The position numbers and the translations under genes are program-made. A stretch of DNA of 64,000 bases from an uncultured Candidatus Marinamargulisbacteria bacterium (GTDB taxonomy: Bacteria; Margulisbacteria; Riflemargulisbacteria; GWF2-35-9; DYQY01), in contig CAZXTL010000004.1 in assembly GCA_964643725.1 (NCBI GenBank), positions 27,874 to 91,873 on the forward strand. Direction: 5' to 3'. The notes under the pieces were generated by a model, which worked only from the letters and a program-made list of their open reading frames with translations, did no database searches and had not been told where the DNA came from. Below are positions 4,612-63,764 of the stretch, piece after piece. Positions within the stretch are counted from its first letter, which is position 1, and each line of letters opens with the position of its first letter.

Positions 4612-7600
4612 ATGAAGAGTACATACTCTTATTTGCATAATATCCAAGGGTTAAGATACAAAGTGGCTTCTTTGGTAGAGACAGATATCCCCTCTTCCGT
4701 AGGAACACCAGACGTGTCTGGTTGTGCTAACACGCCTTTGGCACTTCCTTCTCCAGCAATAAATACAACAGATGCTAATCTAGCAATAGATGCTCCTATT
4801 GAACCAGAAAGACCTGATAATATAAATATAGAGCATGCAAATAATGCACAAAGAGCTATGAATGATAGTACTGTTCCTCCAAAAACTCCACCTGCTGTTA
4901 ACCTAAGCAATTCTTGGTCAAATTATCGAAGAAGTTTTGAAGTTATAAAACAGTTTATGATAAATAACTGGCAGTTAGTTGCTATGTTAGGAACTAATAT
5001 AGGACTTGAAGCTACATATAACTTATCTGATTATGGTCCTGCAGTCGGTGGCATAATAAGAGGGATAGATGCTACTTTATTCATGCATTGGGTTAGCATG
5101 AAGAGCGCTCAGGCATATGTTAAAGGTAAAATTATTGGTTTTAATGGCGGGTTAAGAAAAGAACTAGATAGAGTTTATAAAACATTTATTAATGGAAAAG
5201 ACCTTTCTTCTATTGAACAATTCCAAGTAGCTAATAATATGAAACTGTATTTTACGGTTTCATCTTTAGTTGCAGGAATCGGTGAGTTGAGAAGTAGAAT
5301 TCAACTAGAAGGTAACGTAAGTAATCTTACGGGTGTAAACAATCCTGCTGTTTTAAGTGACCTTATTAACTATTTAGATTCAGGTATTATTGAATTGACT
5401 GCTTTATTGCAAGACGCTAAAGCTCCTCAAGAGGTCAAAAATGCAGTTGCTAGACTTGCAGCATTTACGCCTGAAGAGGGAGACAATGCTTTGGTTGAGG
5501 CTTGGTTGAAAAACAGTGTTTTGCCAGCATTTAGCAATTCAGAAGACCAAAATGTCCAGATAATATCAACGTTTTTCCAGAAGAGGATGAATGATCCTAA
5601 TATTCAAATAGAGGAGAGTTTCCTTATTGCTTTTGATAAATTTTTGCAGGAAGATAATTCCCAGTTTCAATCAAAAATTAAATCCTTACAGAGAAGGCTT
5701 CTTCTAACACAGGCAACTCAGGTGATTATGGCAGTTAGCTTGCTTGGCATTTTAGGATTTAACACATTCACTCAAGATGTTAGCGCTATTCAAAAGATAA
5801 TGACTGTTTATTGCTTTTTAGCTTCTATTTTGTATTATGCGGTAGATGGTGCGACTAATTTTTATAATCAACTAAGAACATTTTTTGATAAGAATTTGCC
5901 AGATTTTGGCGTTCCATTAACTAATAAATTAGATAACCCAATGATGAGTGCGATTCGCTATCCCTTTGCTCATAACAACATGGAGTGGGTGTTTCAAGAC
6001 CTTATTTCCAACGTGCTGTTGGATGGAAATTTCGTAGGTACGGAGAATATATTTAGTAGCGCTAGTATGTTAAGAAGACAGTCTTATGGAATAGTAACTA
6101 TACTTAATGCAGCAAAAGCTAGATATGAGTTATTAAAACCACAGTTTAGTGATTTGCTTAAAGGGTTTAGTGAGAATGCCAAAAGATTGCTGCCTCTTTT
6201 ATTAAGTGTAGACAAATATCACCCAGTTGCTACCGAGATAAGCATTCAGAGAGCAGTTAATAATGTTTTCTCAGGGTATAAAGATAATAAGACAGGTTAT
6301 TTGACAACATTTGAAACATTATTATTAGGTTTCCCACAACAGGATGCCGGTAGACATAGAACAGAGCAGGGCAGATTAATTGTAGAAGCTGTTCTTTTTA
6401 GAATGAAGGGTGAACTTAATAAGGCAGGTTTATCAGATGACGCTATACGTATTTTGGTAGAGAGATTTAATATTGGTGATTTCAATCATTATGATTTTAA
6501 GAATATGATGGAAGATGCTTTAGTAAATGACTTGGGGATGGATAGTACAACTGAGAATTTTAAAACTATAGTAAAGACAATAATTGATAACAAAACCCAA
6601 TATCAAAATGAAGCTGTTATAGCTTATACCAGTAAAGAGGGAATCCCAGCACAGCAGGCAGCAGCTATTATGCATCAAATGCAGGTTGTATTTCAACAAG
6701 AATCAATGTTTGAAAGAATAGCAGAGATAGCTAATCTTTTAAGAAAAGGGATTACTATTGATGAAGAAGGTAACGCAGTTAATCAGGACGCTTTGAAAGA
6801 AGAGTTGCAAGGATTGTTAGCTAAAGCTTTCTTGGGAACAGATGTAGTTAATCAAAACATAGTAGAAATGGTCAATATTTTAGTAGCCAGTGGGGAACAA
6901 ATCACTCAAACATCTTATGATGCATTTACTTTAAAAGATCCAATGTCAGATGTTTCTATGGATGTTAATAAGTTTTCTCATCTAGTGAATGTCCGAAGAA
7001 GAATTGGAATTATGGGACTTAACGAAAAGAAGCTTAGAGGAGAGAACTTCGAAGCTAATCAGGTATTAACTTTATTTTACTCAATTAAAAATATGGTGGC
7101 CGATAAAAACAGTGGTAATCAGGCTGGATATAGAACTAAACTTGCAAATTTATATTTTATTTTAACCGGAGAACAATTAACAGCTACAACTGATGAAGAT
7201 ATTCAGAAAGCTTTTGAAAAAGTTGTGCAATCTTATAAGAGTTTATTAACAGATACACTTACAGATTTTAATGGTAAGTCTACTACAAAAAATATTACCA
7301 AATATAATGATTTAAGTTCAGAACAGAAGAATAATATTGATAATTTTCTAAGTGATAATCAATTTTCAAGAAAGTATACATATAATAAACAAACGGGAGC
7401 ACTTACTGTTATTGGACAAATGACTAAGGCTGAGATTAATATATTAAAAACAATTTTTCCAACAAAGATAGACATAAAAACTTTATATGATATGGAAAAT
7501 GATTCTCTTGGTAAAAACGAAGAGCATTTTAATATAATTAAAGACTTTGATGTAACATCTGCTCAAGCAGAGCAACATATGTTTGATATTGTCACTAGAC

Positions 7601-10600: not shown

Positions 10601-13179
10601 TAGCAGAGAAGAGCCAGCCAGTAACAACACCGTTTGCGAATTTGGACCAAATATGGAATGAAGTTTTATTAAAGCATAAAGGTCTTACTGGTGGACTTTA
10701 CGCTAATGGTTGTTTCTTTATCCAGCGAACAGATATTATGAATAAGAGTCAGATGCATTGGCAAGACGTTGAGCAAGTTAATGCTGCAATGACTAGTGAT
10801 TCTAGAATTTCAAGAATGTATAATAATAATAAGAAGTTTTGGTCAGACTTAAAACAGAATAGTCCTATGGTTTATAATCTGGCCAGAGCTGGATTACTTG
10901 CTGCTGCTGTTATTGGTATTCCATCAGCTATTATCTTGTGGGCTGGAGCTTCTTCTCTCGGCGTTCTTTCTATAGCAGCAATGGTTTCTATTGCTGTCTC
11001 CTTAATGGCACTAACGGTTACATCAGTTGACGTAAAAGGAAACAAAGCGAGTGATATTAACAGTGATATTAAAAAGAACTTTATGTATAGTTTCTTGGCT
11101 ACTTCCTTGGGTGGCACAATGGTTGCTACTGCAATGCTGGCAATGTCCTTTGCACAAAGTGGTTTGGATAAAATGGGTCAGTATGGCCACCAGTTTACTG
11201 AGTTAGGGTTAATTGCTTTTATAGCCTTATTTGCAGCAGGGATAACCACTTGGGTAACACAGAATGTAGGGTTTGCTAAGATAAGAGAGAAAATTACTAT
11301 AAATGCTTTAGGTAGAACAATCCAAGGGCTTAATAATAATTTAGAAAGTTTAGTTGATAAGAATCTTATTAATGTTGCTGGCTTAAGTGATGAGCAAAAG
11401 TCAGAATTTAGAGCAATGCTAGAAATTTATGCAAATTGCAAAGTTGATGAAAACTACGTCAATAGAAATAGATTTTTTGCTGGGTATGTTCGTTTTTTTA
11501 ATGATTTGTTTGATGTTAATACTACAGATGCACAAAAGAAAAGTGCATTTGATATTCTTACTAAGAGTAATGGAGCGATAACAGTAGATGGCTTAAAGAA
11601 TCATGGATTAGGAATGGATGAGGATGCGGCAAAAGGTTTGGTGAAAGAATTAACCAGATTATCATTAGTAAGTGCTACTGGTGAACTTAGTGAGTCATCA
11701 TTAACTTCGACTGAACTTCAGGATTATCTAACAGCTAAATTTAGTGCAGAGCAAACTGAAAACATAAATCATTATTTAAATTTAAATTTTTATAGAAACT
11801 TAATGAAGAAGACCGATTCAAAGGACTTTGTAAAACAGATTTATGAAATGCTGAAAAAACAAAGTGGTTCAAATAATAATGTTAATGAAATGTTGAATGA
11901 TTTTTGTAAAATGATGGGTAAGGATGAAAAAGGGAATCAATTTTTAACTAGAGACGACTTAGATAAATTATTTAATCCAGATTCTAAGGCAACACCTGAA
12001 GAGAAGGAAAACATTGCCAAAGAAATTCAAAAACGTTTTTATGCAACTTACACATCAGCAGATGCAGTGGTTCCAGGTGAAGTTCCAGTAGCTTGTAAGA
12101 AGTTTATCAGTAGGTTTGAAGATTACAAAACAACTAGTGCAACAGAAGATGCCTTTTCCTGGATAACTAATTATTTTATGGGTTGGAATACACAAGCTAT
12201 GCCTGGCGGAATGCCATTAGGTCAGGCAGGGGCAAATACTAGCTTTGATGTTGTTGTTCCACAAAGAGGTGGAAGATGGTATAGTTCAACCTCTGCGTTT
12301 TTATCATACGCATTGATAAATGACGTTTATCAGAATTGGCAGACAAGACCAGCAAGTACAGCTTCTGGAACAGTATCTACTTTATTGTATGGATATTCAG
12401 GTTTAGCTAAAATGCAACTGTTAATGGGAGTTCCTTTAGTAGCTTTAGGTGTAATTAATCCATTCTATTTCTTAACAACCATGGGATTAACAGTATTTAC
12501 AGCGTTTTCATACGCAAATTATTCTGCAGCTATGCAGACTGGCAGACTAGCTAGAGTAACCACTGGAGCATGGTCTTATGGTGTCGATTTGGCATTATAT
12601 GCAGAAAGTAAGATTCATATGCCAACAGCTCTTAAAGAGACGTTAGCTAGAGGTGGCATAAAACCAGAACAAACTGTGCAGATAATGAATATGTCTTGGT
12701 TAGATATACTCAAGAAACCTTTGGATCCCTATAGTTGGTTGATGGTGATGGATAAGTTAACCAATCCAGTAACAAGTCCATTACATAATGCAGGTTTTAA
12801 TATTACTGTAGAAATGGCTGGATCAACTCAACCAAAATTCCATATGAGCTTTGAATCAGTTGTTTCAATTGTATATTCAATTACTTCAGGGTTATTGTTT
12901 ATGAAAATGATGGACTCTTTAGCTGCCGGGGACTTCATGCAATTCCCATATTTTGCAGCTTTTTTGTTTTGGTCTTATGTCCAGTTAAAAAATGCACTTG
13001 GAACAGAACAAATGTCTAGATTGGGAGCTAACTTTTTGATAGAAGGAAAGAAACAGAGCAGAGGAAAGACTAATAACGAAGCTAGTAACAATGAGACAGG
13101 TAAGATTTTGCAGGGTGCTGGAGAAAATACAGGAGAGTATAGGAAAATTTTAACAAATGAATTGTTTAAGAAACCATAA
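4612..13179 (+). CDS. Giant protein (~2855 aa) with a C-terminal multi-pass hydrophobic region. The ORF track starts at TTG 4576, but ATG 4612 with AAAGGA 6 nt upstream is preferred.
   Basis: An 8.6-kb uninterrupted ORF in AT-rich DNA. The last ~700 aa contain several 20-25-residue hydrophobic stretches, for example LLAAAVIGIPSAIILWAGASSLGVLSIAAMVSIAVSLMALTV, LGLIAFIALFAAGITTWV and VPLVALGVINPFYFLTTMGLTVFTAF. No catalytic motif was recognised. Confidence 0.8.
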   Translation: MKSTYSYLHNIQGLRYKVASLVETDIPSSVGTPDVSGCANTPLALPSPAINTTDANLAIDAPIEPERPDNINIEHANNAQRAMNDSTVPPKTPPAVNLSNSWSNYRRSFEVIKQFMINNWQLVAMLGTNIGLEATYNLSDYGPAVGGIIRGIDATLFMHWVSMKSAQAYVKGKIIGFNGGLRKELDRVYKTFINGKDLSSIEQFQVANNMKLYFTVSSLVAGIGELRSRIQLEGNVSNLTGVNNPAVLSDLINYLDSGIIELTALLQDAKAPQEVKNAVARLAAFTPEEGDNALVEAWLKNSVLPAFSNSEDQNVQIISTFFQKRMNDPNIQIEESFLIAFDKFLQEDNSQFQSKIKSLQRRLLLTQATQVIMAVSLLGILGFNTFTQDVSAIQKIMTVYCFLASILYYAVDGATNFYNQLRTFFDKNLPDFGVPLTNKLDNPMMSAIRYPFAHNNMEWVFQDLISNVLLDGNFVGTENIFSSASMLRRQSYGIVTILNAAKARYELLKPQFSDLLKGFSENAKRLLPLLLSVDKYHPVATEISIQRAVNNVFSGYKDNKTGYLTTFETLLLGFPQQDAGRHRTEQGRLIVEAVLFRMKGELNKAGLSDDAIRILVERFNIGDFNHYDFKNMMEDALVNDLGMDSTTENFKTIVKTIIDNKTQYQNEAVIAYTSKEGIPAQQAAAIMHQMQVVFQQESMFERIAEIANLLRKGITIDEEGNAVNQDALKEELQGLLAKAFLGTDVVNQNIVEMVNILVASGEQITQTSYDAFTLKDPMSDVSMDVNKFSHLVNVRRRIGIMGLNEKKLRGENFEANQVLTLFYSIKNMVADKNSGNQAGYRTKLANLYFILTGEQLTATTDEDIQKAFEKVVQSYKSLLTDTLTDFNGKSTTKNITKYNDLSSEQKNNIDNFLSDNQFSRKYTYNKQTGALTVIGQMTKAEINILKTIFPTKIDIKTLYDMENDSLGKNEEHFNIIKDFDVTSAQAEQHMFDIVTRLNLIGVVDTGRLILENGGLPGTAPGEQNSLTLAVATRAAMLAGQAEANFYDDESQVNNVLANSARFGRYDAYFNMAFKQAEEGIRQGLGSQESLDMITTKIPSLRTLSMHVIEKAVDAFLPSYEENQLKIGQMYLGMGSGLARDTRILKNFVESYRDDSLGLRTHLDPKIDAVAVANAELVAKGSELPPKLKELIDFLYLNYMFQGDARGNIRLFGKTTGSLTYDQLAELVISSLENGQMDVRFRHAARDFYIDLGGKDIALLKEALGSGFLTAGDGKKAQIKDAVRAYLKARETQVQKLSDLEEVVMNHEIKGGNVLGDKMLSLYNEPIFRLIYMKLAGVSYEQDVAPMNVVDGYSSAGVKSWLSTLNAKSATEGEYKKYNKMSNNIVLDAYSDTSTTTSPELEELRRKPAKLPAFITGGKADQTNINSSHYGRGRIANQMRGTRLYEYIAQRLQIISGNSTLTNIEIPPMVLNRFEYEVTSTLHKSQSEMMKSNAIYSTALQFMVDQLIAGKTPQQAGAALVTYWKDNLGLTDADVVGGSLKGLAKTCVSFAKVLKVNMAIPNLTGGISAIYAISQGQNLNNVDSAYSGYINGIALDVPISSADVSAKIDEYINKYITEGKFSSKEATELRSVAERMKRNILINEKIKDFTGQLLATKDDAAAFAEKVKETAQKIAEDDLLDQSSKRYLIYYMQEVYRNIAVGKGLSVNDWLILKGEWYTFPAQFLYRTPGDMNKEGPSGRRLLDYLLPWKSTQTMYQSFLFTRPMTMEEVNALNSSAQGQFVGLTKQVPEVENFRGLQIPVGNILRTFADFFDKQVAEEANVIIGEYSKFQKMIREASNNVTTADTAESLISISLADMAVNKPNDLINMAKAITGDSSINNVSDAIDALLAIYDAREFTIDFIQKRLDALIRSKLSINTNPEYTQLNDYFDENVMPGSMLVLYEKMFGLRKPSTHTNQDVDNFNFVNIFLKVFYFSYDWVTGLFQKTRHGMIQGSQNIAEKSQPVTTPFANLDQIWNEVLLKHKGLTGGLYANGCFFIQRTDIMNKSQMHWQDVEQVNAAMTSDSRISRMYNNNKKFWSDLKQNSPMVYNLARAGLLAAAVIGIPSAIILWAGASSLGVLSIAAMVSIAVSLMALTVTSVDVKGNKASDINSDIKKNFMYSFLATSLGGTMVATAMLAMSFAQSGLDKMGQYGHQFTELGLIAFIALFAAGITTWVTQNVGFAKIREKITINALGRTIQGLNNNLESLVDKNLINVAGLSDEQKSEFRAMLEIYANCKVDENYVNRNRFFAGYVRFFNDLFDVNTTDAQKKSAFDILTKSNGAITVDGLKNHGLGMDEDAAKGLVKELTRLSLVSATGELSESSLTSTELQDYLTAKFSAEQTENINHYLNLNFYRNLMKKTDSKDFVKQIYEMLKKQSGSNNNVNEMLNDFCKMMGKDEKGNQFLTRDDLDKLFNPDSKATPEEKENIAKEIQKRFYATYTSADAVVPGEVPVACKKFISRFEDYKTTSATEDAFSWITNYFMGWNTQAMPGGMPLGQAGANTSFDVVVPQRGGRWYSSTSAFLSYALINDVYQNWQTRPASTASGTVSTLLYGYSGLAKMQLLMGVPLVALGVINPFYFLTTMGLTVFTAFSYANYSAAMQTGRLARVTTGAWSYGVDLALYAESKIHMPTALKETLARGGIKPEQTVQIMNMSWLDILKKPLDPYSWLMVMDKLTNPVTSPLHNAGFNITVEMAGSTQPKFHMSFESVVSIVYSITSGLLFMKMMDSLAAGDFMQFPYFAAFLFWSYVQLKNALGTEQMSRLGANFLIEGKKQSRGKTNNEASNNETGKILQGAGENTGEYRKILTNELFKKP
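10866..13000 (+). other. C-terminal multi-pass hydrophobic (putative transmembrane) region of giant ORF4
   Basis: Two clusters of 20-25-residue hydrophobic segments, at nt ~10866-11290 and ~12370-12990, read directly from the translation. Confidence 0.55.
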
Positions 13180-13206: not shown

Positions 13207-16200
13207 ATGAGTGAAGTAAATAGTGTAAAAACAAATCAAGCGACAACAGTTGTTTCACCTAATGTTAGTGAGCCGAAGAAGCCTGCAGCAAAAGCTGAAG
13301 AACCAGCAGTTATTGGAACACAGTTTCAGTCTAGTGTTAATGAATTAGCTGTTCGTAGTTCTATATCAACTGTTAATACTGGAGATATGTTTGATTCCTT
13401 TCTTAAAGCCAGTAATATAAATGAGAAATTGGAATTAGCAGTTTATCTTTTAAGCTCTGAACATAGTGGAGAAGTTAAAGCTTATTTAGAACAATTAGTG
13501 AAAAAGCCAGAAGGTAAACAAGCATTACGTTTGTTCGTAGAAGACATGACTGTTGAAAAAAGAGATTTTTATTTAAGAAGAGTTCTTGGTGCTAGTTATA
13601 GGGTTGAAGAATTGGTAGCAATTATTAAAAAAGAAACAGAGATCAGTAATAGATCAGGTGATATAAAAGATTTAGAGAAGAAACTAGGTGTTAGCTTAGC
13701 TGTTGTTACTGAACTTATTTCTTCTATTGCTAACAGAAAAGAAATTAATATTTCTATGTTGGAGCTTGTGAAAATCGCTTTATTGGAGAAGTTATCATAT
13801 GCTGATGCTAATAAGATTAGTAGTCTGCTATCAAAATATGCAAAAGGCGAAAGTATCTCAGTTGAAGATATGAGAAATGTTGTTACAAAGGCTTTGGAAG
13901 TCATTAAGAATGACAAATCATTAAGCGAATCCTGTAAAATGATAGTTGTAATTTTGGAAAAGTATTTGGATAAGAAAACAACTTATAATGATTTTGCATC
14001 TCTTGTTAAAAGTTCTTTAGGTGAGAATATTAAGGTTGGAGAAAGTTCTTTTGCTCTTATTGAAGGAGCTCTTAAATGTGTAGTAGCTGAATATGGTTTA
14101 TATGATGCAAGTTCTTTTAGTGTGATTATGAATCAATTATTAAGTTCCTTAAATGAAAAAGGGATTGTTGATATTTCTTATAAACTTAAGTTCCCTTTTA
14201 ATAAATCATATAGTTTTATTGATGAAGCAATTAAAGTTGATAATAGTTTGTCAACTATTCCTGACATAAATAGATTTAGAGTTGCATCTGATGTTAATAC
14301 TGAAAAGTTACAGGCGTCTGTTTATGATGATTTAATGCGTATTTTTTCTGACAAACAAAAAGAGGTATTAAATATTAATGGTGGTATTCTTTTAAGAAAC
14401 AATGCTCAACATCAGCAAATAGCCATTATTGACCAGGTTACAGCTTTAAATGTTTTGATAGAGGTTAGAGGTAGTAATAAATTAACTGAAGAACAGAATA
14501 AGCAAGTAGATGGATTGATTGATAAGTTACTCATAGGTATTGGTTTAATGCACGATAAAACTAAGATATTTCCTGGATCAAGGTATTTTTATGATGGTAT
14601 TTTAAGAACAAGGGAAGCAAAAGATAGAAATTCAGCTACAGATGCTAATTTTCTTTTAACAAAAGCTTATCTTTCTTTGTATAGGATACGTAGGGAAGAA
14701 AAATATCTTACTGCGGCAAAGAAATACATGGATGAGATAAGATTCCATGGTTTTGCTAATATTTTCGATGGCAATGTGCAACGTTTACTTGTGAAGGTTA
14801 GTCCTGATATTGAAGATTTAGATGATTCAAGAACCTTTGGTTTTAATTCCAGTGGTCTTGTTTTTGAAAGTTTATTGTTATTTATGCAAGACGATAAAGA
14901 AAATAGAGGTTTTTGGGAGAAGGCAATTAAAGATAACTTTAGTGTAATGAAAGAGTTATTAAAAAATGGTTTTTTAAAGGAAGTTTCTTCTATTCGTTTT
15001 GAGAATGGTGGAATAAAGGAATATGATACTTACAATAAATTTTCACCTATTATAAATGGTGTAAATTATAGCTATATTCCTTCAGCTATGTCTCTTTACA
15101 AATATGACCAACAACATGGATTTAATTTATTAAGTGAAGATAGCTATAAAGAATTTTTTGCTTTATTAGATAAGCATAGTACTCCTTATAATAAGTTTTT
15201 CTTATCTCCTTCAACAGAACAAGTTAATATGCTTTTTTATTTAGGGAATAAGGATAATATGGGACAAAAAATGAAGTTACCTGATACTAGTACAATTATT
15301 TCAGGTGATAAGGAAATAAGACTTTTTGAGTCGTTGAGGTTTAGTTATAACAAGTTGTTATTAGGTGGAGAGTCTTTATCTGAAAAGGAGATTAATTTTC
15401 CTTCATCTGATGATTTTTATTTTAAATATAGATCTGACCTTTTCAGGTCATTTAGTGAAAACATAAAGGCAATATCGTCTTTATTGGGAAATGAGTCTCC
15501 TGATTTACATGATCTTGCAATTAATTTCCATGAGCTTTTATATAATTTTTCTAGATTTGATAAAGGGTTATGTAAAGAGTTAATGAATAGTTTTAAAGAT
15601 GGTAAGAAGTTGGGTTCAATACTAGAACAACTTAGCAAAAATGGGTTTATGGAATTTAATGCAAACGTCAATGTTTCTAAAAAATATGAGGATATCGCTA
15701 ACAAGCTGATTTCAGAAATGGGAACAGCAGAGTTTAAGAGTATTAGAGAGAATCTTGAGTTAAAACTTTTTATGAGTATTTCTCAGGCAGATGAGGTGAA
15801 AGCTTCCTGGACAGGGAGCCATCCACCTGGAATGTTGAAAGCAATTATTGAGCTAAGTAGAGACTTAGATGGAGTTTCAGAAACTCAAATGAATAGTTAT
15901 GGAAACGATGCTGTTTCAAGAAGACTTAAGCTTATTGTAGCGACAGGAAGTCCTTATTATAAAATTCACCCTGTTGTAGAGAGATCATTTTTTACTGCTA
16001 GGTATCCTCAAGATATTCAACAGTTGGATAGTACTATAAGTATGCTTGAGTCAGGTTATTCTTCTTTGGATAGGTATCTTGAGTATGTACAGCGATTAGA
16101 AACAGTATCTGTGCAACTTAAGGAAAAAGGCCTTATGGATAATTACTTTTATGTTAGAACAAAATATCTTGAAGCCGTAAATAATATTGCAGAAGAGGAT

Positions 16201-29618: not shown

Positions 29619-29705
29619 GAAATTATTATACTGTTTATTCGTTGATTTGTTTATATGTTTATTTGTTTAAGAAAGAGTATTTTTAGTTAATATGATTATA
29701 TTTAC

Positions 29706-29790: not shown

Positions 29791-29791
29791 T

Positions 29792-30706: not shown

Positions 30707-30716
30707 TTTTAACTCC

Positions 30717-39226: not shown

Positions 39227-39238
39227 AAAGGTGAAGTA

Positions 39239-42200: not shown

Positions 42201-42682
42201 AAGAGGGTAGAGCAGAGGTAATGAAGGAAATTTTAGATGCTGGAAGTGATAAGAAATATTCAAAGTTTTTAGCGTTTTATAAAGCTGATCCTAAAAATGC
42301 TGTACTTGTTTTGTCTATGATAAAAGACGATAAAGGTGCAATGGGTGCGTTAGAGAATGCTTTAAAAAACATTGATTCGGCATATTTGAAGGATTTACTT
42401 GACGTAAATTCGAAGTCTATTGCTGAGTTGTTTAGTTTAGTAAAGGATAAGAAGGAAGTAATGGAAAAACTTAAAAAGAATATAGCTGAGCTTAGTAAAG
42501 TTTCAGCAAATCATTTGTTATTGATAAGTTTCCTAAAAGAGATGAAGACTGCTGACTATGATAAAAGTTTTGTGGCTAGCTTAAATAGTTTTCTTGATTT
42601 AACCTTTAAAGCTGAAATTAAAAAAATATCAGCTGTTGGAGCAAGTGGTCTTTTGGGGGCGATTAGATCGTTACAATCATAG
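39239..42682 (+). CDS. Large hypothetical protein (1147 aa), the first gene of the second giant-gene cluster
   Basis: A 3.4-kb ORF with AGGTGA 6 nt upstream of the ATG and a heptamer tandem repeat immediately upstream. No recognisable domain. Confidence 0.75.
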   Translation: MVDPVSIKLSDIKFETGIRKDASLVFVVLQKNDKLPDGLTAKNIETALIKLKNTNESAYRLLMQAVTAHTNDNLNASQNELGKIAEALKSFDVSKFTLDDKKVKLTIDAELIDGIDVSGGTVQSDAKLAEVTGDYDAFAKEMLNIQPPPNAPPKVEAEEKIISPAKKKIALSDLFEKAFKGTLTVADIDKTPLPKDVEDIFVSIQGETNTEISAEQKVAILKELGSQGFLGTADDYKNDKSGVFSERGTELGNKPTIAFATEFFNRPGTKLQVNQSDLQAAVHSLCRSFEINKKLGRGIGEFAVYAKEFISASAYSVTKISKTTEGAATNLSEKLSGSGRPGLNSGQLKGLATAYAGATFNQQTNLPISNGSGAQITIDPKDDKKVVLSVKVGDAFKPVMSFAKADLDQIVEGTKDEREGKDLWFLNFLEFMTQEKDDKVQTWGNKKITDKTYIKDGKTIEIKDVNKPFQEAVNGITGGEVESIGFKDSQDKETQISCLKLNGFTMSGIERGSNGIVRDMTVNVETKQFFVIARGEDKGPFKFYLAEKSPAGGIQPSTLPNGNNKLTFTIGGVSVSKEVNVGASADTSKPVTDPSRKTPLELGSPPALRSGVAMPKIVPGMSIKLDEVYGESKDLAYSLDIGSKSIYPVSNGRIIIPEVGQSLTSDPKGETLTVNESQLVISRIANQKLVPNTNTTPIKIIDPGSLTFEDLKALILSPLGTEENISIYLSGNNSMITKGNIGEIVGLLKGKPQILAKLLEWLSTAPAIPPTSPSLNLVKIENNIVVDVVANSGIADGVKGAINKLTPDEISAVFKNGSDNPSVILLVKGWFDNATDPQKSAFINISHQLLGKLKIDSKVLAGLAKEDPSLASLSGMEDDTAKIVISGLLKETTPPADYSKLIKLIKSDTGRFTGLLQQLQKEQPDLKVSLNCTKALVAGLSADELKVEKDGSTTLASLILKDLKSADVISISKDLDNAKLTVVLIVAKEGRAEVMKEILDAGSDKKYSKFLAFYKADPKNAVLVLSMIKDDKGAMGALENALKNIDSAYLKDLLDVNSKSIAELFSLVKDKKEVMEKLKKNIAELSKVSANHLLLISFLKEMKTADYDKSFVASLNSFLDLTFKAEIKKISAVGASGLLGAIRSLQS

Positions 42683-54800: not shown

Positions 54801-57800
54801 TTGCCAGGCAAATTAGCCCCCAGATTGACAGTTGAGGTTACACAGGTTGGATTGTTGGGTGCTTATGAAAATACTATTGCTTTAGCTTTAAAAGATAAAC
54901 GTACAACGGTAACAATTGAGGAAATTCCCTATAATTTAGATAATGCTGAAGGTATTTATAAACTTAATAAGCGATTAAGGGAATTAGCAACTTCAAATAA
55001 TAGTGATCCAAGTCAATTGATAAGAGATGGAAATGATTATTTGTTTTTTAGAAGCAATATTACATCACAAACTGTTGATGGTATTCAATATCGAATAGTA
55101 GCTTTTAAAGATATTTTGTTTGGTGATCAGAATTTTCATGGTGCTGTTTTTAATGATCAAAATAGTAAGTATTTTGGTGAAAGTGGTACTCATGAGATTT
55201 TGTTAAATGATTCATCTATTAAGGAATGGTCAGAAAAGGTTGTTAAGTTTGCTAAAGAAGGAGCATCAACAATTCAAGGAACATTTGCTAAACAGATAGT
55301 TGAGTTGGTAAGAAGCTTGGCCGAGGAAGAAGGAACAACTCCAAAAGGTAAGGTTTTGTCTGATGTAGATCTTTCTTCAAGAATACTTGTTATGTTAAGA
55401 GATACTGTTTTGGCTCATGAAAAAGGCCATGTATCAGATTTTCTTAAAGAAATTACCAAAGATTTACCACCTCACATAACTGATCATGTATTTATTCATG
55501 ACCTTTCTGAAATAAAGGCATTGTTATCTTCACAAAACGATAAATCAGTTTTGAGTTTAATATTAAATAACCTAAAGCCTGAATGTACTGACGCACAAAT
55601 TAAAAGAGGGTTGGTCTATCTGCAAGCTCAGCTTTATTATTATTCTTCTTCCTTAAAAGAAGGAAGTGTTGAGTATATGGTTTTAAATGAGAGCTTGAAG
55701 TCTGCAGTGAAGGAAGCAGGTGAAATAATTGGAGTAGATGGGAAAATAAACAGAGCATCGATTGAGAAGTTGTCTGGATTATTAAACAAAAATAGTGAGT
55801 ATGTTCTAAAGCATCTAGAACAATGTCGTCAGGAAATTATTGCTAGAGGGAATAATGGTCAATTAACAGCAATATCTATAAAAAATTTACAGAATTGGTT
55901 TCACAGGATGACCAATACTACAGCTGCCAAAGATTTTTATTCTACTGGTGATACTAGTAAGATGGAAACACAGGAGAAATTTAGTCCAAGTAGAGTACAA
56001 TCTGTTCCAACGGATGTTCCAGTAATAATAGATAATTCAGGAATTGGAAAGATTGATAGTCATTTAGCATTGAGAACGGCTGTGGGAGATAAAGTTTCTA
56101 GGCTGGAAAGTCCTAACGAAGCAACTGTGAATCTGAGTGAATCAGAGATTCAGAAGATAAAAACGTTAAAGAAAGAATCTGGGGACCTAATGGCTAAGTT
56201 TGAGAAGGCAATAAGTGATAGCCCAAGTTTATCTTCTTTGGGTGAACAAGACAAGAAAGCATTATTAGTGCAAATTCTTGCAGAGATTAAAGCTAGCGAT
56301 GATTCTTTAAAGGTTTTAGAGTTATTTAAGAAAGCAAGCATTCAAGGGGTTTCAGCGGCAGATATAGGTGGGTTAAAGGCTAATATGATGGCCATAGAGT
56401 CAATTTATCAAAAAGTTTTCGAGAATTCAGAAATATTTATTGGTTCAAAAATAATGCCTCATACAGGTAAGTATTCTGGATTTCCTCTTACTTTTATTTA
56501 TGACATAGTTGATAGAGCAATAGAAAAAATAGATCAAAAAGGTGGAGCCGTTAACGTTCCAGTTATTGTTTTGGAAGGTAATCCAGCTGAAGTTAAGAAA
56601 ATGTTTCGTGTGCTTGCTTCTTTGTTTGAAAATAGAACTCTTTCCGTCGATGTCCCTGGTATACAATCTGCTTTATTTCAATACAATGCATTAAGGGCAA
56701 CAGCAGAAGTAGGTTTGTTAATAGCAGCAAATAATCCATCCTATTATACCGCTTTGGCTGGAGATACATCATCTGGATTACTCGCGGTAGATATAAATTC
56801 TCCTTTCTCACATAATTATGTTTTTACTGACAAAGGATTGGTTAGAATTGAGCAACAAAAAGTTGCAGGTGTTTATTATTCTATTCAGCAATCATTAATG
56901 GAAAAGATGTCGGAGTTGAGGTCTGCACAAGGTAACTCAATGTTAAGTAATAATGATATAAAAGCAGCAATTAATCAGGCTATCAATTCAGTTGAAATGA
57001 CTGACAAAGAAGCTAAAATAATTAGAAAGTATTTCTTAAGTAAATTCATAAACGAAAACGGTGCAAAAGATGATTATTTTATGATTATTAATCAGTTGCA
57101 ACGTTTCGGTGTGCAAGTAAATCCTCAAATGTTTTTGGAGGAGTTTAATAAACAATATAATGTTGATTTTATGACAATGGCTAAGAATGGACAGCTGACG
57201 CCTGATAAAATGAGAAGTTTATTTTATAAACCAAATGGGGAATTCGATCAATTTAAGTTTGAATCATTTATGGAAAAGGTATTAACTCCTAATAATAGAA
57301 AACTATTAGGAATACCAGTAGGTCAATTATCAGAAGGTTTAATGGAGAATGCTTTCCAGGCAGTGTTTGTTATGTTAACTGTTGCAGCTTATAAGATAGC
57401 AGCAGGAGAGGATTGTAAATGGGAGGATATTTGGGAGTTCGGTTGGAATGAGTTAAGTGCAACAACTTCATTATTAAAGATGACTTGGGCCTCAATGGCT
57501 TTAGGCTATAAGTATAAGGCTACATCTGCCCCACTTATGATGACTTTAGTTTGGTCTCAGATTCGATCTGTTGCAACTGCTAAGAACAATGTAGTAGATG
57601 GGTTAGTAAAGATGGAATTAAAATCAGGAACAGATGTACAAAGGATGAAGTCAATGGATGCTTACTTGCAAGAACAGATTTCAACTGTTTCACAAACAGT
57701 TACATCTGATGGCAAATTAAGTTTTAATTACAAAGGAGAAAGCACAGACGTTGCTGGATTAAATGATTTAGTTAGAAAATCAGCTGGAGCATCTCCATTA

Positions 57801-60800
57801 TTAACTATAAGTGATTCTTCTGGAGTAGTTTCATCTGCTGGTTTTTCTTATATGAATGTAGGAGTTATGACTGATACTGGAGATAAAGTCCTTAAGGAGT
57901 TAGAAAGATTAGGATATGTTAAGAAAACCGTTAGAGGTTATGAAATGATGGATAAATTTCGGCAAGACCTAGCTGAAGAGAAATTCAACGTAAATTCTTT
58001 GTTAGAAACGATTTATGGGGACATGATAGTGTCTGTATTGGATGCTAATAAATGGGTATGCACTATGCCAAAGTTATTAGAGAAGTTTACTTCTGAAGAG
58101 ATAAATAAATTAATAGAAATGGGATATATAAGTAAAACTGGAGCTACAGTATCTAGCATCGAAGGAAAAGCAATATTTGTTCCTCAATACATTTTTAATC
58201 AAAAGCTTTTTGCTAATAGGTTGATTGAGGCGAAAGTTATTACTGATATTACTGAGTCCGGTCATAAGATTGATAAAAAAGCATTAGAGGACAATCCAGA
58301 TGTATTTCTTTTGGGAGGAAGCGATTTTAATAATAAGTTTATAGAATTATATGGAGAACTTCAGCAAGGATTAAGTGGTCGGATGGTAAAATATTTATCA
58401 GAAAAATACAATGAGAAAGTTTTTTTACAAGAAACTTCTTCTGTTTGGGCAAGAAGTGTTGAGCAAAAACAATTAGAATCTAAATATGTAGAAGTAGAAC
58501 CAGACAATAAATATGTATACACATATTTAACAGAACAAAGAGCAATGTATAGATATATTGCATATTCAGTTGTTAATTTTGCTAAGGCTGATAGTTTTTT
58601 TAAGGATATTGATGCTCAAACTCTTATGCAATATTTTTCAATGGGGAAAGAAGAGCTTTCTGAAGAGTTGTCGAAAGGTAAATTTGATAAAAGTATTTCT
58701 GAGAAAATAATGTCTTTAAGAAACTTAATGGAAGAGTTATCTTTTGAAGCAGGTAAAGAGTTGGGTAAAATCAAGAGAAGCACCCATGAAGTTGATAAAG
58801 TTTTACAAACAATTAATGATATAATTTTTCAAAAATCCAAAGGTAATATAAGTAATGCTTTAAGTCTTGATGTAATTAAAAGTGATGCGAAACAGCATTA
58901 TTTAAGAGGGAAAATGTTTAAAGAACAGTTTGTCCCTAGGTATCATACTCCCACTGTTGAGCAAATAAAGAAGTTTTTGTCTGAAAAGGTTCCTGCAAAT
59001 GTTTTAGCTACTGAGTCGTATAGTAATATTACTGATGAGAAAGAAATGTTCTCATTTTTAGAAAAACAGTTAGATTCTATCTATGATTTTGGAGAGTATT
59101 TTTCAACAAAACAATTAAAATCCGTTGATACATTTCTTTATGCAGTTGCCAGATTTCACAAAGAAAAAGAACTTTTAGATGGATATAAAGAAAAGGATAA
59201 GCCCATACGAATATACGTTTATTTTAGGCAAGAAATAGAAGATATTAAAAGAACTAATATTGAAGAATTCGCAGGATATGCTCGTCAAATGACTGGTTCT
59301 GATTATGGTGTTGGAATGGGTATAGCTCAATCAGCTGCTTCCTTGTCTGCATTTATGACTACAAATAGAAAAATGCAACAGTTTACCGACAAGATTATGA
59401 GGGGACAAATAACAAAGATGGGGCAACTAGCACCTGAGGTTTTGACTACTACTATATTTAGAGGGAAAGATATTGGGGTTAAACATATTTTTAACGGAAG
59501 AAATCTTGCAGGACATTATATCCCAATGGGTATATCATCTTTAGCTTGTATTGGTGCAGGCCTTGCATTGCAGCTGACATATGAGCAGGAATGGGCTAGA
59601 CCTTATATGGATGTTGTAATGAGAGATACACTAGCTCCTTTTGCTTCAGAGTTTGCCTTTATGTACCCAGTTATGCCAAGTACTTGGGTAACTAAAATAA
59701 TAAAACAACAAGGATATGACATTACAACTTTAGATCATATTGATGAAGGATGGGGTAAAAGATTTGCTTTGTTAGGAATAGATACAGGCTTAGCTGCTGC
59801 TGATTTTTATTTGCTTTCACAGGCAAAGAAAGGTGCAATGAAATTAGGGGTATATCAAAATAATAGTGTTTTTAATCTTACTCCAACACAAAAATTAGCA
59901 TCAGAGACTTTGGATCGAATTTATAAGCAATCAAGCGCTGTTGATTCGAAAGTTGCTTCACCGAGTTTAAAGATATTAACTGACTCACAACAAAAGTTAA
60001 TAAATCAAATGCAAGATGGATTTTGTGAGAAAGCATATGTATTGGAAGACGGAAATACTATTAGATATCGGGTTAAAGGTGGTAAATTTCAAGATATACC
60101 TTTTGAAAAAGCAGAAAAAGCAATTGCCGAATATTCAGAAAAATATGCTACTGCAAGCTTAGATGACATTATTCGTGATGCAGGGCAAGGGATTTTTTTA
60201 GATATTAAGATAACAGGCCCAGATAAGTATAAGATTACACTTGCAAATGGTGTTACCAAGGAATTTACTACTGAAGAGTTAAAGGCTGCCCTTAAGAATA
60301 AGCAAGGTGATTTATCTAATATTTTTTTCAAAAGAGATAAAACTGGAAAAGTAACAGGTATGAATATGAAAGCAATAGGTGCTTTAACTTCTATGTTGGC
60401 TTTAAAAGGAATTATAGTTGCAGCACTTAAGGCAGGCAAGTCTGATTCAGAAATATCTGATGTTTTAAAGGAAGCGATTAGTAGTACTTCACGTGACTTA
60501 GGACAAGTTGCAGCGTTTACAGCTACTGAAACAATCCTTACAAAGCTCGGAGTTAAAGGTGTTTTGCCTGGTTCAGGAATAATAGCTGGAGGAGCTGGAA
60601 AGGCAGCTTTGGTTTCTATTTCAACTGCGACAGTTATTGCAGCTATTATAGTTGAGACAGGTAACTATATATATGAAAATTGGGATGAAATTAAATATGG
60701 AGCTGATGCTAATGATTTCGCAAAGAGTCAAGCAAGATTAGGCATAGCATTCACAGCTGGTAAAGCAGCTGCTACAACCTATGCTGCTCTTTTTGCTGCA

Positions 60801-63764
60801 GGGGCGGCTGCTAGCCTAGGAACTGGAGGAGCTGCTCTTATTGGGATCGCTGCAGCGGTTGCAGTTTATGGGGCAATTGAATTGATACAGTGGGGCTTAT
60901 ATGAGAAAACTGGTTGGAGAGAGTCAGATGATAGAAAAGATATGATAAGTGAATTTTCTTATAGAACTAGTAATAAAACACAATTATCTTTTAGTTATGG
61001 TGTTAATGATGATAGAAAATATAGTAGATCTAGTGGAAGTTCTGTTATTAAAGAAGAGTATCCTGGAGTAAAAATATTAAAGAACTTGTTTAATCAAGTT
61101 TCTGAAGGTGTCAATGTTTGGGCAATTATGAAAGAGTTAAATGTTAGTAAAGTTGATATTGAGGATTTGTATGATTTAGACCCAAATTTATTTATTCAAT
61201 TATATATTAAAGTTCAAGAACTAAAAAAGAGAGGACTGATAAAGGAAGATGCCTTTAGTTCTCCATCAACTATTCAAATAAAGTTAAATAAGATAACTAG
61301 AATAGTAGACGGTTTCGCTGAGTATAAGGTTCTTCTGAATATTAATGGGGTGAAAGATCCCATAGAAGTAACTTATAAACGTCCACTTAAAGGAGATTAT
61401 TCTGATGCTCAGGTAGATGATTCAACTTACAAAGAGATTCTTGCTTCTGGTCAGATTGTTATTAATGGGAATAATGTTGTGAAAAGTATCCCAAAGGGAG
61501 GATGGCTGTATGAAAATTTTCTTTGGGAAAAAGGTGCTCCACAGCAGAGTGGTATTGAGTTTATGTATTATTTGCTAAGAGCTAATGAAAAACATGAAGG
61601 TAAAGATGTTTTGCGTAATAAATTAAAAACATTAGGTGGTGGTGATGAGTTTAGTGCTTTTTTTGATGAAGTAATAAACATTATTGATGGGAATGAAAAA
61701 GAAGGTTTTGTTAGTTTTTTAAGTAAAACTAGTTTTTGGGCTGGAAATTCTGTAAATAAAGATAATTATTTTAAGTTAGTAAATTTTTTGTATTTGATTT
61801 ATGTTTCAGATAAGAAAAAGAATGGCGGTTTATTTGAGAATAAGGATTTAAATTTATATAACGAATCAGATTTTCGTAATGCATTTGTTGAGTTTAATAA
61901 AACTCTAGGGAGTAGAAGAATTGAATCAGCTGAAGACTTGAAGGGATTAACTAAAATGAGTTTTGTTAATTATGTAGAGGAATTATTGAAGATGGAGATG
62001 GGGGCAATAAATACTGAAGATTTCTTTAAAGGACAAATTGTTGTTCTAAATGGGATATTTAATACAAGGGCTCGTTTTTCAAATGCTCAGTCTACTATTT
62101 CCTGCCATACTCCCGTTAATCGTTCTTATGTAAAAGAAACACCTGACCCTCAAATAGCAGGATTGAAGGTGTTGCTTGATAAAGATGATGTTAAGTCCTT
62201 TATGATAGATCATGAATTTATTATTCCATATCCAGGAATAGAAGGTGAATATATGGTAAATCCTAAAAAGTCTAAGGAAGAGTTTAAAGGTCTATTTATG
62301 AAGAGATTTTTTCCGTTAAGTTCTTTTATACCTTTAGAGTTTAGACATGAGTCTCCTGATGAAATGTTAAATTATTTATCACGACTTAAGTCGCCAGAGA
62401 CAGCGCCGAATCATACAAAATATGAGTCTCCATGGTTTGTTCCAGAACAATCATTAAGGGGATTGCGAAGTTCTGAGGACAGTGTATTTTTTGCAAGGGG
62501 ATTAAGGAAGGCATTAGTAGAAGTTGGACTTCTTGATAGTAACTTTTGTATAAAAAGTGACATCGATTACAATAGTGTTGGTGAAGAGTATTTTAGAGAT
62601 AAACTTAAGGGGACAAATTATTCTGAGTTATATAGAAGGATAGCTAATTTTTTTATTAATTATAATAATTTAGTGCCAAATGTGCTAAGGCCAGAGCTTA
62701 ATTCTGAAATAATCAAGTTGTATCTTCCTTCTATTTCAGGCGAAGAAGCAAGGAAATCATATGATTTTTTAGTTAAAGCAGGTGTTTTGGAATTAGTTGT
62801 AGATGGAAATAAAGTTAATCATTATTTTGTTAAAGATATCTCTAAGTTTGATGATGTTGATGTTATGGATGCAGCCGTACTTAAATATAAAAATCAATGG
62901 TATCAATTACTTTTAAGAACTAAAAGAGATGCATTAACAGAACTAGAAGTTTCTTCTATTAATTTACCTTCTTTACAGAATGTATCAAGTTCTTGGCAAT
63001 ATGAAAATATTGAGTATGTTAATCGGTTAGTAGGTTTGTTTGGTAGAGGTCAAACTTCTGTTGCTCCAGAAGTTAATAAAGCAATTAGTGCTGATAAATC
63101 TATAAATGAAGTTACAGAAGTAGTTAAAAATTCATTAGAGGGTAGGAGAACTGCCTTTCAGTCTGGTCAGCAATTCAGATTAGCATATTTTGAGCAAGTA
63201 AGTGCTAAGAATAGAAAAAAAGAAGCTGGAGAAATAACAGGTGGGCTTAGTTCAACAGCAATCATTACAGATTTTCGAAATAATTTAGGAAGACAATATT
63301 ATGGTTCTGATGGGAAAGTTTATTTGACTAAGGTTTTTACAGAATATTTAGACCCGAATCAAAGAAAACGGTTTGCGGATTTACTTGAAAAGACGTACTC
63401 AGTCAAAATGGAATCTTTGACTCAAGAACAGATGATTGCAAAATATATGGAGTATCGACAGAATAGGTTTAGACCGAATATGGGTCAGATTAGAGTGCAG
63501 AGTATTCCTTGGGATAACTTTGAGCAGTATTTGCCTAGCATAATTGACAAGACTGCTTTTTTTGAAAGGTTTTTAGTTGAAGAGAAATATCGAGAATTGG
63601 AGGAGAAGTATGGTGGTGCACTTACAATAGACACTCTTTCCCCAGAGCAAAGAAGTTTATTAGAGGTTTATATGAATACTAATCATAAAGGTCAAAGGCA
63701 AAGTTATAATGGTTTGATAACTCCAGCAATTCTGGAGCAAATTTATCAGGATTTTATTAAATAA
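42852..63764 (+). CDS. Giant protein (~6970 aa) with an embedded SecA-like motor ATPase region. The ORF track starts at TTG 42843, but ATG 42852 with GAGGAG 9 nt upstream is preferred.
   Basis: A 20.9-kb uninterrupted ORF. Residues ~2745-3360 align by eye to SecA NBD1, the PPXD-like segment and NBD2 (see the separate feature). An HEKGH motif lies at 55416-55430. A Gly/Ala-rich hydrophobic segment lies near the C-terminus (nt ~60360-60900). The N-terminus looks beta-rich. Confidence 0.85.
   Translation: [6970 protein letters not shown]
51080..52920 (+). other. SecA-type ATPase motor region (NBD1, PPXD-like insertion, NBD2) embedded in giant ORF8
   Basis: [45 protein letters not shown] aligns to SecA ...[41 protein letters not shown] (Walker A). 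[13 protein letters not shown] aligns to [31 protein letters not shown] aligns to [41 protein letters not shown] aligns to [23 protein letters not shown] (DEAD/Walker B). [35 protein letters not shown] aligns to [53 protein letters not shown] aligns to [39 protein letters not shown] aligns to LRGRSGRQGDAGSSRFYLS (motif VI region). Confidence 0.7.

Follow-up and report, generated by a model that had tools for sequence, protein, structure and literature searches.

Two operons of giant, fast-diverging genes in Margulisbacteria, with a putative SecA-like motor and a predicted metal centre in the largest product

A 64,000-nt stretch of DNA from an uncultured Candidatus Marinamargulisbacteria bacterium (contig CAZXTL010000004.1, positions 27,874 to 91,873; hereafter the window) contains five uninterrupted giant open reading frames (ORFs), ORF4 to ORF8, all on the + strand, which together make up 48,543 nt or 75.8% of its length in a six-frame ORF list. 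We confirm that these are real genes under selection and find that they belong to two separate operons, which flank a housekeeping block of uppP, secF, secD, tgt, a GH57 gene and hom. Operon 1 consists of ORFC, ORF4, ORF5 and ORF6; judging from gene order in relatives, the functional unit of operon 2 appears to be (DUF559)-ORF7-ORF8-d1-d2-d3, with a tail that lies mostly outside the window. The largest product, that of ORF8, combines a SecA-type motor module with a second, putatively metal-binding domain and a candidate membrane anchor. As we argue below, the explanation that we tentatively prefer is that ORF8 is a membrane-anchored motor machine that would process polypeptide into an envelope or surface structure.

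Results

Five giant genes in two operons

The lengths, order, strand and spacing of the giant ORFs, along with a coverage of about 76% and a gap of about 10 kb between two clusters, had been put forward in a first-pass annotation, and they stand: spacers measure 27 nt between ORF4 and ORF5 and -1 nt between ORF5 and ORF6, and 10.4 kb separate ORF6 from ORF7. For ORF4 and ORF8, ATG 4612 and ATG 42852 were chosen as starts because each has a ribosome-binding site (RBS) at the proper distance. The window has 33% G+C, with a strong excess of G over C on the coding strand. At this composition stops would account for a fraction of 0.084 of random codons, which translates into a probability of encountering no stop of between 1e-43 and 1e-264 across the five ORFs. 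A chance origin is therefore excluded, in agreement with the earlier argument from length and AT-richness. The remaining five frames of each giant ORF contain 25-1015 stops, and G+C content by codon position (GC1>GC2>GC3) follows the order seen in neighbouring housekeeping genes.

Open frames of this size might still be products of misassembly or of the fusion of many small genes, the two readings that had been singled out for checking. However, an identical copy of ORF5 and its flanks is present between the same neighbours in JGI 3300045131 and in Logan SRR35365923 (a different run), and in at least six independent assemblies, drawn from four archives (ENA, JGI, NCBI and Logan), homologues that are 24-59% identical are open over their full length. 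This recurrence of intact, identically ordered homologues in assemblies made independently rules out both readings.

The Tgt protein encoded between the two operons is 96% identical to that of a Candidatus Riflemargulisbacteria metagenome-assembled genome (MAG), 90% to that of a Candidatus Termititenax MAG and 83% to that of a Marinamargulisbacteria MAG, with the next matches at 53% or less in a search of one genome per GTDB species, so that the window is Margulisbacteria chromosomal DNA. Every relative that we found has a context attributable to Margulisbacteria, or is unassigned. The window has no Rfam match and no tRNA genes.

Conservation of gene order in relatives, another check that had been called for, delimits both operons (related loci and proteins are cited by our own L and P numbers). 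For operon 1, a 614-aa homologue of ORFC (65% identical) lies directly upstream of the ORF4 homologue in L035, L036 and L037. The L035-type order continues with proteins of 2967 aa, 2258 aa (P0019) and 3008 aa and then BacA, all open in ENA and JGI assemblies, with identities of the three giants of 59% to ORF4, 58% to ORF5 and 40% to ORF6. Homologues of ORF6 are likewise found next to uppP in L005 (41%), L006 (47%) and L004 (33%, C-terminal part). On the Termititenax, Marinamargulis and Riflemargulis MAG contigs an ORF6 homologue comes after uppP.

For operon 2, an ORF7 homologue, a giant gene, d1, d2 and d3 occur in the same arrangement four times (L040, L041, L042/L043 and L044). The ORF7 homologues of these modules measure 640-1087 aa, the low-complexity d1 proteins 116-159 aa, d2 558-569 aa and d3 434-554 aa. 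In a further locus, L045, a 664-aa ORF7 homologue precedes a frame that stays open for more than 6,643 aa and runs off the end of the locus; L045 shares the 189-kb contig Ga0307929_1000014 with P0019, the ORF5 homologue. An ORF7 homologue stands directly upstream of every ORF8 homologue found. The module follows tgt-GH57-hom-DUF559 in L041, as it does in the window, and on the Termititenax contig the ORF7 homologue lies across the housekeeping block from the ORF6 homologue; L042 and L044 place operon 2 in other genomic contexts. In L042 the module has a transposase-like gene downstream of it.

ORF8 stops 236 nt short of the window end, and an open frame runs from 63909 to the last nucleotide of the window. 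Because relatives share five genes, L041 matches the context of the window, and a d1-like start is present at 63909, the unit should extend past the end of the window, and the gene that begins there is probably d1, the first of the three conserved downstream genes. The view of the five giants as a single set thus gives way to two units, ORFC with ORF4-6 and ORF7-8 with three further genes.

An ORF8 family with an embedded SecA-type module

An exhaustive HMMER search with a 1,200-residue query from ORF8 that spans the SecA-like part, run against 1.84 billion representative proteins, yielded 17 matches. Seven are true relatives, with E-values of 4e-91 to 9e-29, and the other ten are ordinary SecA proteins (174-998 aa) at E 2e-7 or worse. 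Four of the seven relatives are full-length (5313-7185 aa; P0002-P0005) and carry the matching region at a similar position; ORF8 is collinear with them from about aa 1000 to about aa 6130. A word-index homology search with a 1,500-aa query, a method insensitive for long divergent queries, returned nothing. On this evidence ORF8 appears to belong to a separate and very rare family. Across the five full-length members conservation is concentrated in blocks at aa 1600-1850, 2700-3400, 3700-3800, 4000-4250, 4800-4950 and 5400-6000.

The most conserved of these blocks is the SecA module. Pfam SecA_DEAD matches ORF8 at E 5.7e-14 (52.5 bits against a cut-off of 24.6), the single sequence matches SecA in the PDB at E 6e-6, and a profile of seven family members matches E. 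coli SecA structures at E 3e-19 over SecA residues 82-463, a span that takes in nucleotide-binding domain 1 (NBD1) with Walker A, the DEAD-type box and motif III, the inserted preprotein-binding domain (residues ~220-377) and the start of NBD2. These matches support the module, noticed in the first-pass annotation, as genuine. They come with some qualification: P0004 and P0005 have only a faint precomputed PF01043 match, and ORF8 scores 28-32 bits against TIGR00963 and SecA2, where the cut-offs are 725-800 (32.4 versus 800 for TIGR00963). The helical scaffold, wing and C-terminal tail of SecA were not detected in ORF8, there being no SecA_SW match and no alignment to SecA in the PDB beyond residue 463-479. 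Conservation collapses after aa 3400. In the ORF8 family a large insert in NBD2 is followed by invariant 'NxNRAV' and 'QExxRLxRxxG' motifs, which to our eye resemble helicase motifs V and VI.

Beyond the SecA module no further Pfam or NCBIfam domain was found in ORF8. Toward the C-terminus, three hydrophobic helices at aa 5841-6015, whose last member is the strongest transmembrane candidate, are position-conserved in all full-length homologues. This is the Gly/Ala-rich segment with which ORF8 had been said to end; in fact it lies ~960 aa before the C-terminus. The ~950-960 residues that follow this candidate anchor are poorly conserved and are missing in the shortest members of the family.

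A second, putatively metal-binding domain

The SecA-like module had been taken for the only enzymatic domain of the giants. That part of the claim needs amending, as ORF8 holds a second enzyme-like domain further downstream. Here six family sequences align around HE[KERT][GS]H and a Glu at X26 ('E..AD'), with H, E, H and E invariant. An AlphaFold2 model built from the six-sequence alignment has a predicted local distance difference test score (pLDDT) of 81.5 and a predicted TM-score of 0.81, and Foldseek places SnPolE first among structural neighbours (probability 1.00, TM 0.43-0.46, E 5e-3), followed by dipeptidyl peptidase III (DPP III) of B. thetaiotaomicron (probability 0.77). Sequence identity to DPP III and PolE is 10-12%. 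The family has no Pfam match to Peptidase_M49 or DUF6421 even at E<=5, and a profile search of the PDB gave nothing significant.

PolE is a DUF6421 Fe/pterin-dependent oxidase with a DPP III-like fold and the motif HE/DxxH-X21-23-E, while M49 peptidases, to which DPP III belongs, have a HExxGH hexapeptide and a second zinc motif, EExxAE/D, downstream (PMC12614342, which covers the latter in part). The ORF8 domain shares the two-lobe DPP III fold in its model. It differs from both families in its motif, HExxH-X26-E followed by 'ADF', a pentapeptide with a single Glu. We regard the domain as a likely DPP III/PolE-fold metal centre, of either a peptidase or an oxidase.

A second HExxH protein is encoded in operon 2. 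By far the most conserved gene of the module is d2 (36-81% identity, 142 invariant columns), located at 24441-26117 in L040, 32188-33864 in L041, 29547-31235 in L042 and 18744-20453 in L044. Its product has an invariant (Y)H302-E303-x-x-H306 with E330 (spacing X23) and a 'WFLDTDT' block. Between d2 and the metal domain of ORF8 hhalign detected no relationship, and the idea of d2 as a free-standing version of that domain was rejected. None of d1, d2 and d3 has a Pfam match, and profiles of d2 and d3 found nothing significant in the PDB. As for ORF7, its conserved core spans aa 1-750. Pfam and single-sequence PDB searches returned no significant match for it, the search of one genome per GTDB species returned none, and there is one marginal PHROG of unknown function (E 5e-4).

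Giant genes outpace their neighbours in divergence

The giant genes differ strikingly from the genes around them in how fast they diverge. Between the window and L041, Hom is 92%, GH57 80% and Tgt 82% identical, compared to 27% for ORF7 and 24-26% for ORF8. Between the window and L040 the DUF559-type protein is 91% identical, ORF7 45% and ORF8 24-28%. When L040 is compared with L041, AspRS (92%), QueC (86%) and d2 (81%) stand at one end, d3 (62%) and d1 (38%) are intermediate, and the homologues of ORF7 (25%) and ORF8 (24%) stand at the other. ORF6 of operon 1 gives a similar picture, with Tgt and Hom 96% identical between the window and L004 and the C-terminus of ORF6 33% identical. All ten pairs of full-length ORF8 proteins fall at 22-27% identity, regardless of how closely their hosts are related.

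Such star-like, near-saturated divergence of ORF7, ORF8 and ORF6 is consistent with an exposed interface on which partner cells, hosts, prey or phages exert diversifying selection. We favour this reading because the giants diverge in a star-like fashion while their neighbours and d2 remain conserved, and because islands of constraint persist at the motor, the metal site and the anchor.

The proteins of operon 1

ORF4, ORF5 and ORF6 have no significant match in Pfam, NCBIfam, PHROG, PADLOC and single-sequence PDB searches, except for weak matches of ORF6 aa 2381-2582 to coiled-coil families in Pfam and NCBIfam. A motif scan found no conserved Walker A, HExxH, DExD/H, CxxC or GxSxG in the three proteins, and in ORF5 no transmembrane segment, motif or domain was found at all. 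The long coiled coil that had been noted in ORF6 is upheld, a crude heptad scan and direct reading agreeing on its extent.

ORF4 had been described as ending in a polytopic membrane region. Membrane segments are indeed there, although they are split: a first group at aa 2093-2215, with equivalents in the L035 homologue, is separated by a soluble insert of ~370 aa from a second at about aa 2590-2640, which hydropathy places, together with a weaker stretch at 2750-2795, within the C-terminal block. A search with the ORF4 C-terminus by word index, insensitive for long divergent queries, retrieved one fragment only (P0020, 68% identical). Taken together, operon 1 looks structural and membrane-associated, with ORF4 probably embedded in the membrane. 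As far as sequence can tell, ORF4-6 would be three giant orphan proteins of no known kind that we could name.

All five giants lack an N-terminal signal peptide, their N-termini being polar and without a hydrophobic core by hydropathy and inspection. BLAST revealed neither internal repeats nor mutual similarity among them, and Tandem Repeats Finder (TRF) no tandem repeat with a period above 21 nt inside the ORFs. Profile-profile comparison by hhalign showed no relationship between the ORF8 family and ORF4, ORF5, ORF6 or ORF7. The candidate explanation of operon 1 as a split paralogue of ORF8 was rejected on the same comparison.

Positions of the giant ORFs, their domains and adjacent elements in the window
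Feature	Position (nt)	Strand	Remarks
ORFC	2689..4536	+	615 aa; no Pfam match; conserved partner upstream of ORF4
ORF4	4612..13179	+	2855 aa; alternative TTG start at 4576; GAAAGG RBS before ATG 4612
ORF4 hydrophobic cluster	10888..11256	+	aa 2093-2215; predicted tight transmembrane hairpin 2093-2136 and one or two further segments (Kyte-Doolittle)
ORF4 C-terminal block	12109..13011	+	aa 2500-2800; best-conserved part, 71-93% to L035 (Marinamargulis) homologue
ORF5	13207..19974	+	2255 aa
ORF6	19974..28823	+	2949 aa; start overlaps ORF5 stop by 1 nt
ORF6 coiled-coil region	27186..27923	+	~aa 2405-2650, ~250 aa
Small DUF559-type (endonuclease-like) ORF	38735..39049	+	104 aa; 91% to L040 gene and 81% to L041 gene, both with precomputed PF04480 match
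~70-nt hairpin element	39040-39115		hairpin CCCTTCTT GATA AAGAAGGG, then TGGCGACA...TTACGCCGGGAAGATT; overlaps end of DUF559-type ORF
(AATAGTG) x9.3 perfect heptanucleotide tandem repeat	39164..39228	.	TRF score 123, 98% matches; ends 10 nt before ORF7 start codon
ORF7	39239..42682	+	1147 aa
ORF8	42852..63764	+	6970 aa; longest frame from TTG 42843; GAGGAG RBS before ATG 42852
ORF8 SecA-type motor module	50949..53051	+	aa ~2700-3400; Walker A GGGKT, DEAD-type box IDEAD, preprotein-binding domain, NBD2-like motifs
ORF8 putative metal-site domain	54849..55901	+	aa ~4000-4350; invariant H-E-x-x-H at 55416-55430, invariant Glu 26 residues after second His
ORF8 hydrophobic Gly/Ala-rich region	60372..60896	+	aa 5841-6015; three hydrophobic helices, last the strongest transmembrane candidate
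d1-like gene start	63909..64000	+	reads MSGGMAIRETQAGQQLGQG... (MSGGMAIRETQAGQQLGQGVNGAGPKANGP...); AAGGAG RBS; Gly/Gln/Ala-rich; cut by window end

Neighbouring genes and repeats

The 10 kb between the two operons encode, on the minus strand, uppP/BacA, secF, secD, tgt, the GH57 enzyme, homoserine dehydrogenase and a weakly calpain-like protein. Across the whole window G makes up 20.2% and C 13.0% of nucleotides; GC skew is +0.2 to +0.35 at genes on the + strand and ~0 in the minus-strand block, and therefore tracks the coding strand rather than replication direction alone. In the stretch that corresponds to 28848-37307 of the window, identity to L004 (JBAXBT010000010) drops toward the giant gene: Hom 96, GH57 94, Tgt 96, SecD 85, SecF 75, UppP 81 and the ORF6 C-terminus 33%. 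This gradient may reflect recombination or hitch-hiking around a hypervariable gene. L004 also has an extra 385-aa ORF between secF and uppP.

The calpain-like protein (37366-38598, minus strand, 410 aa) has a weak match to calpain (Peptidase_C2) at E 2e-4, below the cut-off. Its identity to the L004 and L006 counterparts is no more than 56-57%, compared to 90-96% for adjacent housekeeping genes, and in L041 a different gene of 188 aa takes its place.

The DUF559-type ORF precedes ORF7 in relatives too, although ORF7 and ORF8 themselves are only 24-45% identical there. Two repeat elements precede ORF7. Degenerate versions of the AATAGTG repeat occupy the same position in L040 and L041, and nucleotide similarity between the window and L041 ends at this repeat. 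The tract may serve slipped-strand phase variation, or it may control the ORF7-ORF8 operon as a series of binding sites. The ~70-nt hairpin element recurs in L040 (533-600), in three copies in L041 (6279-6600) and as a variant in L006; it has no Rfam match and could be a repeat akin to repetitive extragenic palindromic sequences, a terminator or a small RNA.

Upstream of ORF4, on the + strand, there are a radical-SAM gene, a PNP_UDP_1-like gene and the orphan ORFC. The radical-SAM protein (542 aa) adjoins the PNP_UDP_1-like protein at 74-2648 (+), a pair that presumably recalls the futalosine-pathway genes for menaquinone (MqnE/C and MqnB). As listed, the second ORF begins at TTG 1578 and shares 125 nt with the first; its true start probably lies further downstream.

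Discussion

Having established that the giant ORFs are real genes, we can ask what a protein such as ORF8 might be doing. We suggest, tentatively, that ORF8 would be anchored in the inner membrane, with a large N-terminal part, the SecA-like motor included, facing the cytoplasm; most of the protein should be located there because an ATPase domain needs ATP. If SecA is a guide, motor and preprotein-binding domain together might grip and thread unfolded polypeptide. The substrate might be parts of ORF8 itself; ORF7, d1 and the giants of operon 1, which lack signal peptides, are further candidates. The metal domain in cis, together with the HExxH protein d2, might then process or modify the substrate, and the end product could be a large envelope or cell-surface structure.

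Several points weigh against this motor machine. Each step of the mechanism is our inference. Neither the window nor the flanks of relatives yielded a channel-like domain, a secretin or a component of type I, II or V secretion. What ties operon 1 to operon 2 is co-location only, housekeeping genes included (L006; Ga0307929_1000014), and homologues of ORF4-6 turn up in few genomes, although the searches are insensitive for long, divergent queries. The candidate NBD2 motifs V and VI of ORF8 ('SANTNRAVDVQ' and 'QEIFRLGRTxGxxRxxG') are our own reading of the alignment, HMMER not having aligned them to SecA. The metal domain could be a PolE-like oxidase rather than a protease, its X26 spacing fitting neither family exactly. 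The hydrophobic helices of ORF8 contain charges, and an AlphaFold2 model of aa 4830-6029 reaches a pLDDT of 42. Finally, fast divergence could also arise from relaxed constraint on long linker-like regions.

A bolder version goes further and is correspondingly doubtful: there would be a lineage-specific, self-contained apparatus whose ~7,000-residue membrane-anchored protein, independently of SecYEG signal peptides, employs a SecA-derived motor of its own to export and process itself and/or ORF4-6, ORF7 and d1, and the outcome would be a hypervariable surface structure that makes contact with partners, hosts or prey. If true, this would amount to a previously undescribed protein-export route. 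Alternatively, giant proteins of Margulisbacteria and of Omnitrophota may each have recruited a SecA motor independently.

There are a number of scenarios in which the giants would do something else. They might be intracellular structural proteins, a cytoskeletal or membrane-organising scaffold in which the SecA-like ATPase has been repurposed as a remodelling motor. ORF4-6 lack signal peptides, repeats and conserved enzymatic motifs, ORF6 has its long coiled coil, a low-confidence model of a long part of ORF8 is mostly helical, and dependence on ATP would keep the motor in the cytoplasm, all as one would expect of a scaffold. Yet housekeeping scaffolds are normally conserved, and here the giants stand at 24-45% identity where housekeeping proteins stand at 80-92%; moreover, the retained preprotein-binding domain points to the handling of polypeptides, and the membrane anchors and the variable region after the anchor suggest a part exposed at the envelope. 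We therefore consider a purely internal role unlikely, while giving it some weight.

Margulisbacteria include ecto- and endosymbionts, a Trichoplax symbiosis described in a preprint among them, and one could imagine that the giants enter the cells of a host, prey or partner as delivered effectors or toxins, with hairpins that insert into the target membrane and an ATPase and metal domain that act in the target cytoplasm. The lack of Sec signal peptides in all five giants (by inspection), the hairpin at aa 2093-2136 of ORF4, the location of the ORF8 hydrophobic helices far from both termini and a divergence that, set against neighbouring genes, is as extreme as in an arms race would all be compatible with this scenario. 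What makes it improbable in our eyes is that neither the window nor the 10-kb flanks of six related loci contain type III, IV, VI or contractile-injection genes, that no eukaryote-like or toxin domain was found in the giants, that delivery of a 7,000-residue protein has no established route, and that close relatives come from metagenomes of a free-living type.

Could ORF8 instead be a polyprotein that yields many proteins of ordinary size once its own metal domain and/or d2 has cleaved it, its length reflecting gene organisation and nothing more? The invariant HExxH...E of ORF8 and the second HExxH protein in the operon invite this idea, which has also been proposed for Omnitrophota giants with peptidase domains. 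But fold and motif fit a non-proteolytic Fe/pterin oxidase as well; conserved linkers resembling cleavage sites were neither sought nor found; and homologues are poorly conserved outside four or five blocks, none of which, SecA excepted, corresponds to a known free-standing family. We hold cleavage of this kind to be rather improbable.

We think it very improbable that a mobile element, phage or plasmid carries these clusters as cargo, or that they form an anti-phage defence island. The DUF559-type ORF, the repeated ~70-nt hairpin and the tandem repeat just upstream of ORF7, the transposase-like gene of L042 and the hypervariable gene content might be read in this way. However, no relatives were found in 50,697 phage records, 72,556 plasmids and 2.9 million viral contigs, PHROG and PADLOC gave no match beyond the marginal PHROG of ORF7, the position between the same housekeeping genes is kept in several Margulisbacteria lineages, and G+C content and codon pattern are host-like. 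That the ORFs are artefacts of chimeric assembly, or of fused small genes with missing stops, we judge negligible: the source is metagenome-derived and the exact Tgt protein occurs elsewhere only on short contigs, but two other samples contain ORF5 and its flanks in identical form, homologues are collinear over ~5,000 residues, and there is no tandem duplication or repeat to mislead an assembler.

The overall interpretation of the first-pass annotation, that of a co-functioning surface, secreted or attachment system, is thus supported in part at best. Five big ORFs have become two defined and conserved operons, with the accessory genes ORF7 and d1-d3 travelling with the giant, and ORF8 has gained a second conserved domain, the putative metal site, besides SecA. 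The giants sit near saturation, at 22-27% identity in every pair, amid flanks that are 80-92% identical; for the accessory protein d2 the figure is 81%. If the SecA motor handles the giants, operon 2 would represent a route of export or assembly independent of signal peptides, in proteins smaller and perhaps more tractable than the Omnitrophota giants of 30-147 kilo-amino-acids (kaa). If it does not, several large protein families without a known fold remain, well suited to structural and proteomic study.

How does this system compare with those already described? Clusters of giant surface proteins are one point of reference. Giant1-5 of Apilactobacillus kunkeei (PMC12863079) and the giant haemagglutinin- or RTX-like proteins of Chlorochromatium epibionts (bioRxiv 10.64898/2026.03.19.712371) are described as extracellular and as resembling surface proteins or virulence factors. 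Their likeness to ORF4-8 lies in several consecutive genes of 2-8 kaa that account for an appreciable fraction of a small genome, in bacteria attached to other cells. Giant adhesins are typically repetitive and carry export signals. ORF4-8, in contrast, have no detectable internal repeats, no N-terminal signal peptides on inspection and no adhesin Pfam domains, and no ABC, MFP, TolC or TpsB genes were found near them in the window or near their relatives in related loci. From their sequences, then, ORF4-8 do not appear to be classical repetitive adhesins.

Canonical SecA is a second. With it the ORF8 module has in common Walker A, the DEAD-type motif II, motif III and the inserted preprotein-binding domain; unlike SecA, the module is embedded in 6,970 aa and has a large NBD2 insert, and no scaffold, wing or C-terminal linker was detected. 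By these features, and with the curated cut-off missed, ORF8 is not a canonical SecA.

The closest parallel is provided by giant proteins of Omnitrophota and Actinobacteria, in which divergent SecA_DEAD and preprotein-binding domains without scaffold or wing occur along with transmembrane segments and peptidases, and for which self-export and self-processing have been proposed (bioRxiv 10.1101/2023.11.21.568195; bioRxiv 10.64898/2026.06.07.730766). Like the Omnitrophota giants, ORF8 is a very long single ORF with an embedded divergent SecA DEAD/PP-bind region lacking scaffold and wing, with putative transmembrane segments, a peptidase-like domain and long stretches without a domain, and in both cases the hosts are small-celled uncultivated bacteria. 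There are differences, too. ORF8 comes from Margulisbacteria and measures 7 kaa versus 30-147 kaa (the study's class is '>30,000 aa'). Its SecA module lies ~2,500 residues before the anchor, whereas in the Dockerin and Archaeovorin types it lies after the anchor. Neither glycosyl hydrolase, dockerin nor C39 peptidase domains, nor a neighbourhood of type II secretion or sugar-import genes, was found for ORF4-8 in the window and six related loci. No kinship between ORF8 and the Omnitrophota giants was detected: the search gave seven relatives and then SecA of ordinary length, and the Omnitrophota proteins were compared by description only. Surveys list Margulisbacteria among the phyla enriched in huge proteins without characterising them (PMC11573180; bioRxiv 10.1101/2023.11.21.568195). 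Giant SecA_DEAD proteins as a kind are therefore already known; what is new here is the definition of the two operons, the putative metal domain and the contrast in evolutionary rate between the giants and the genes that surround them.

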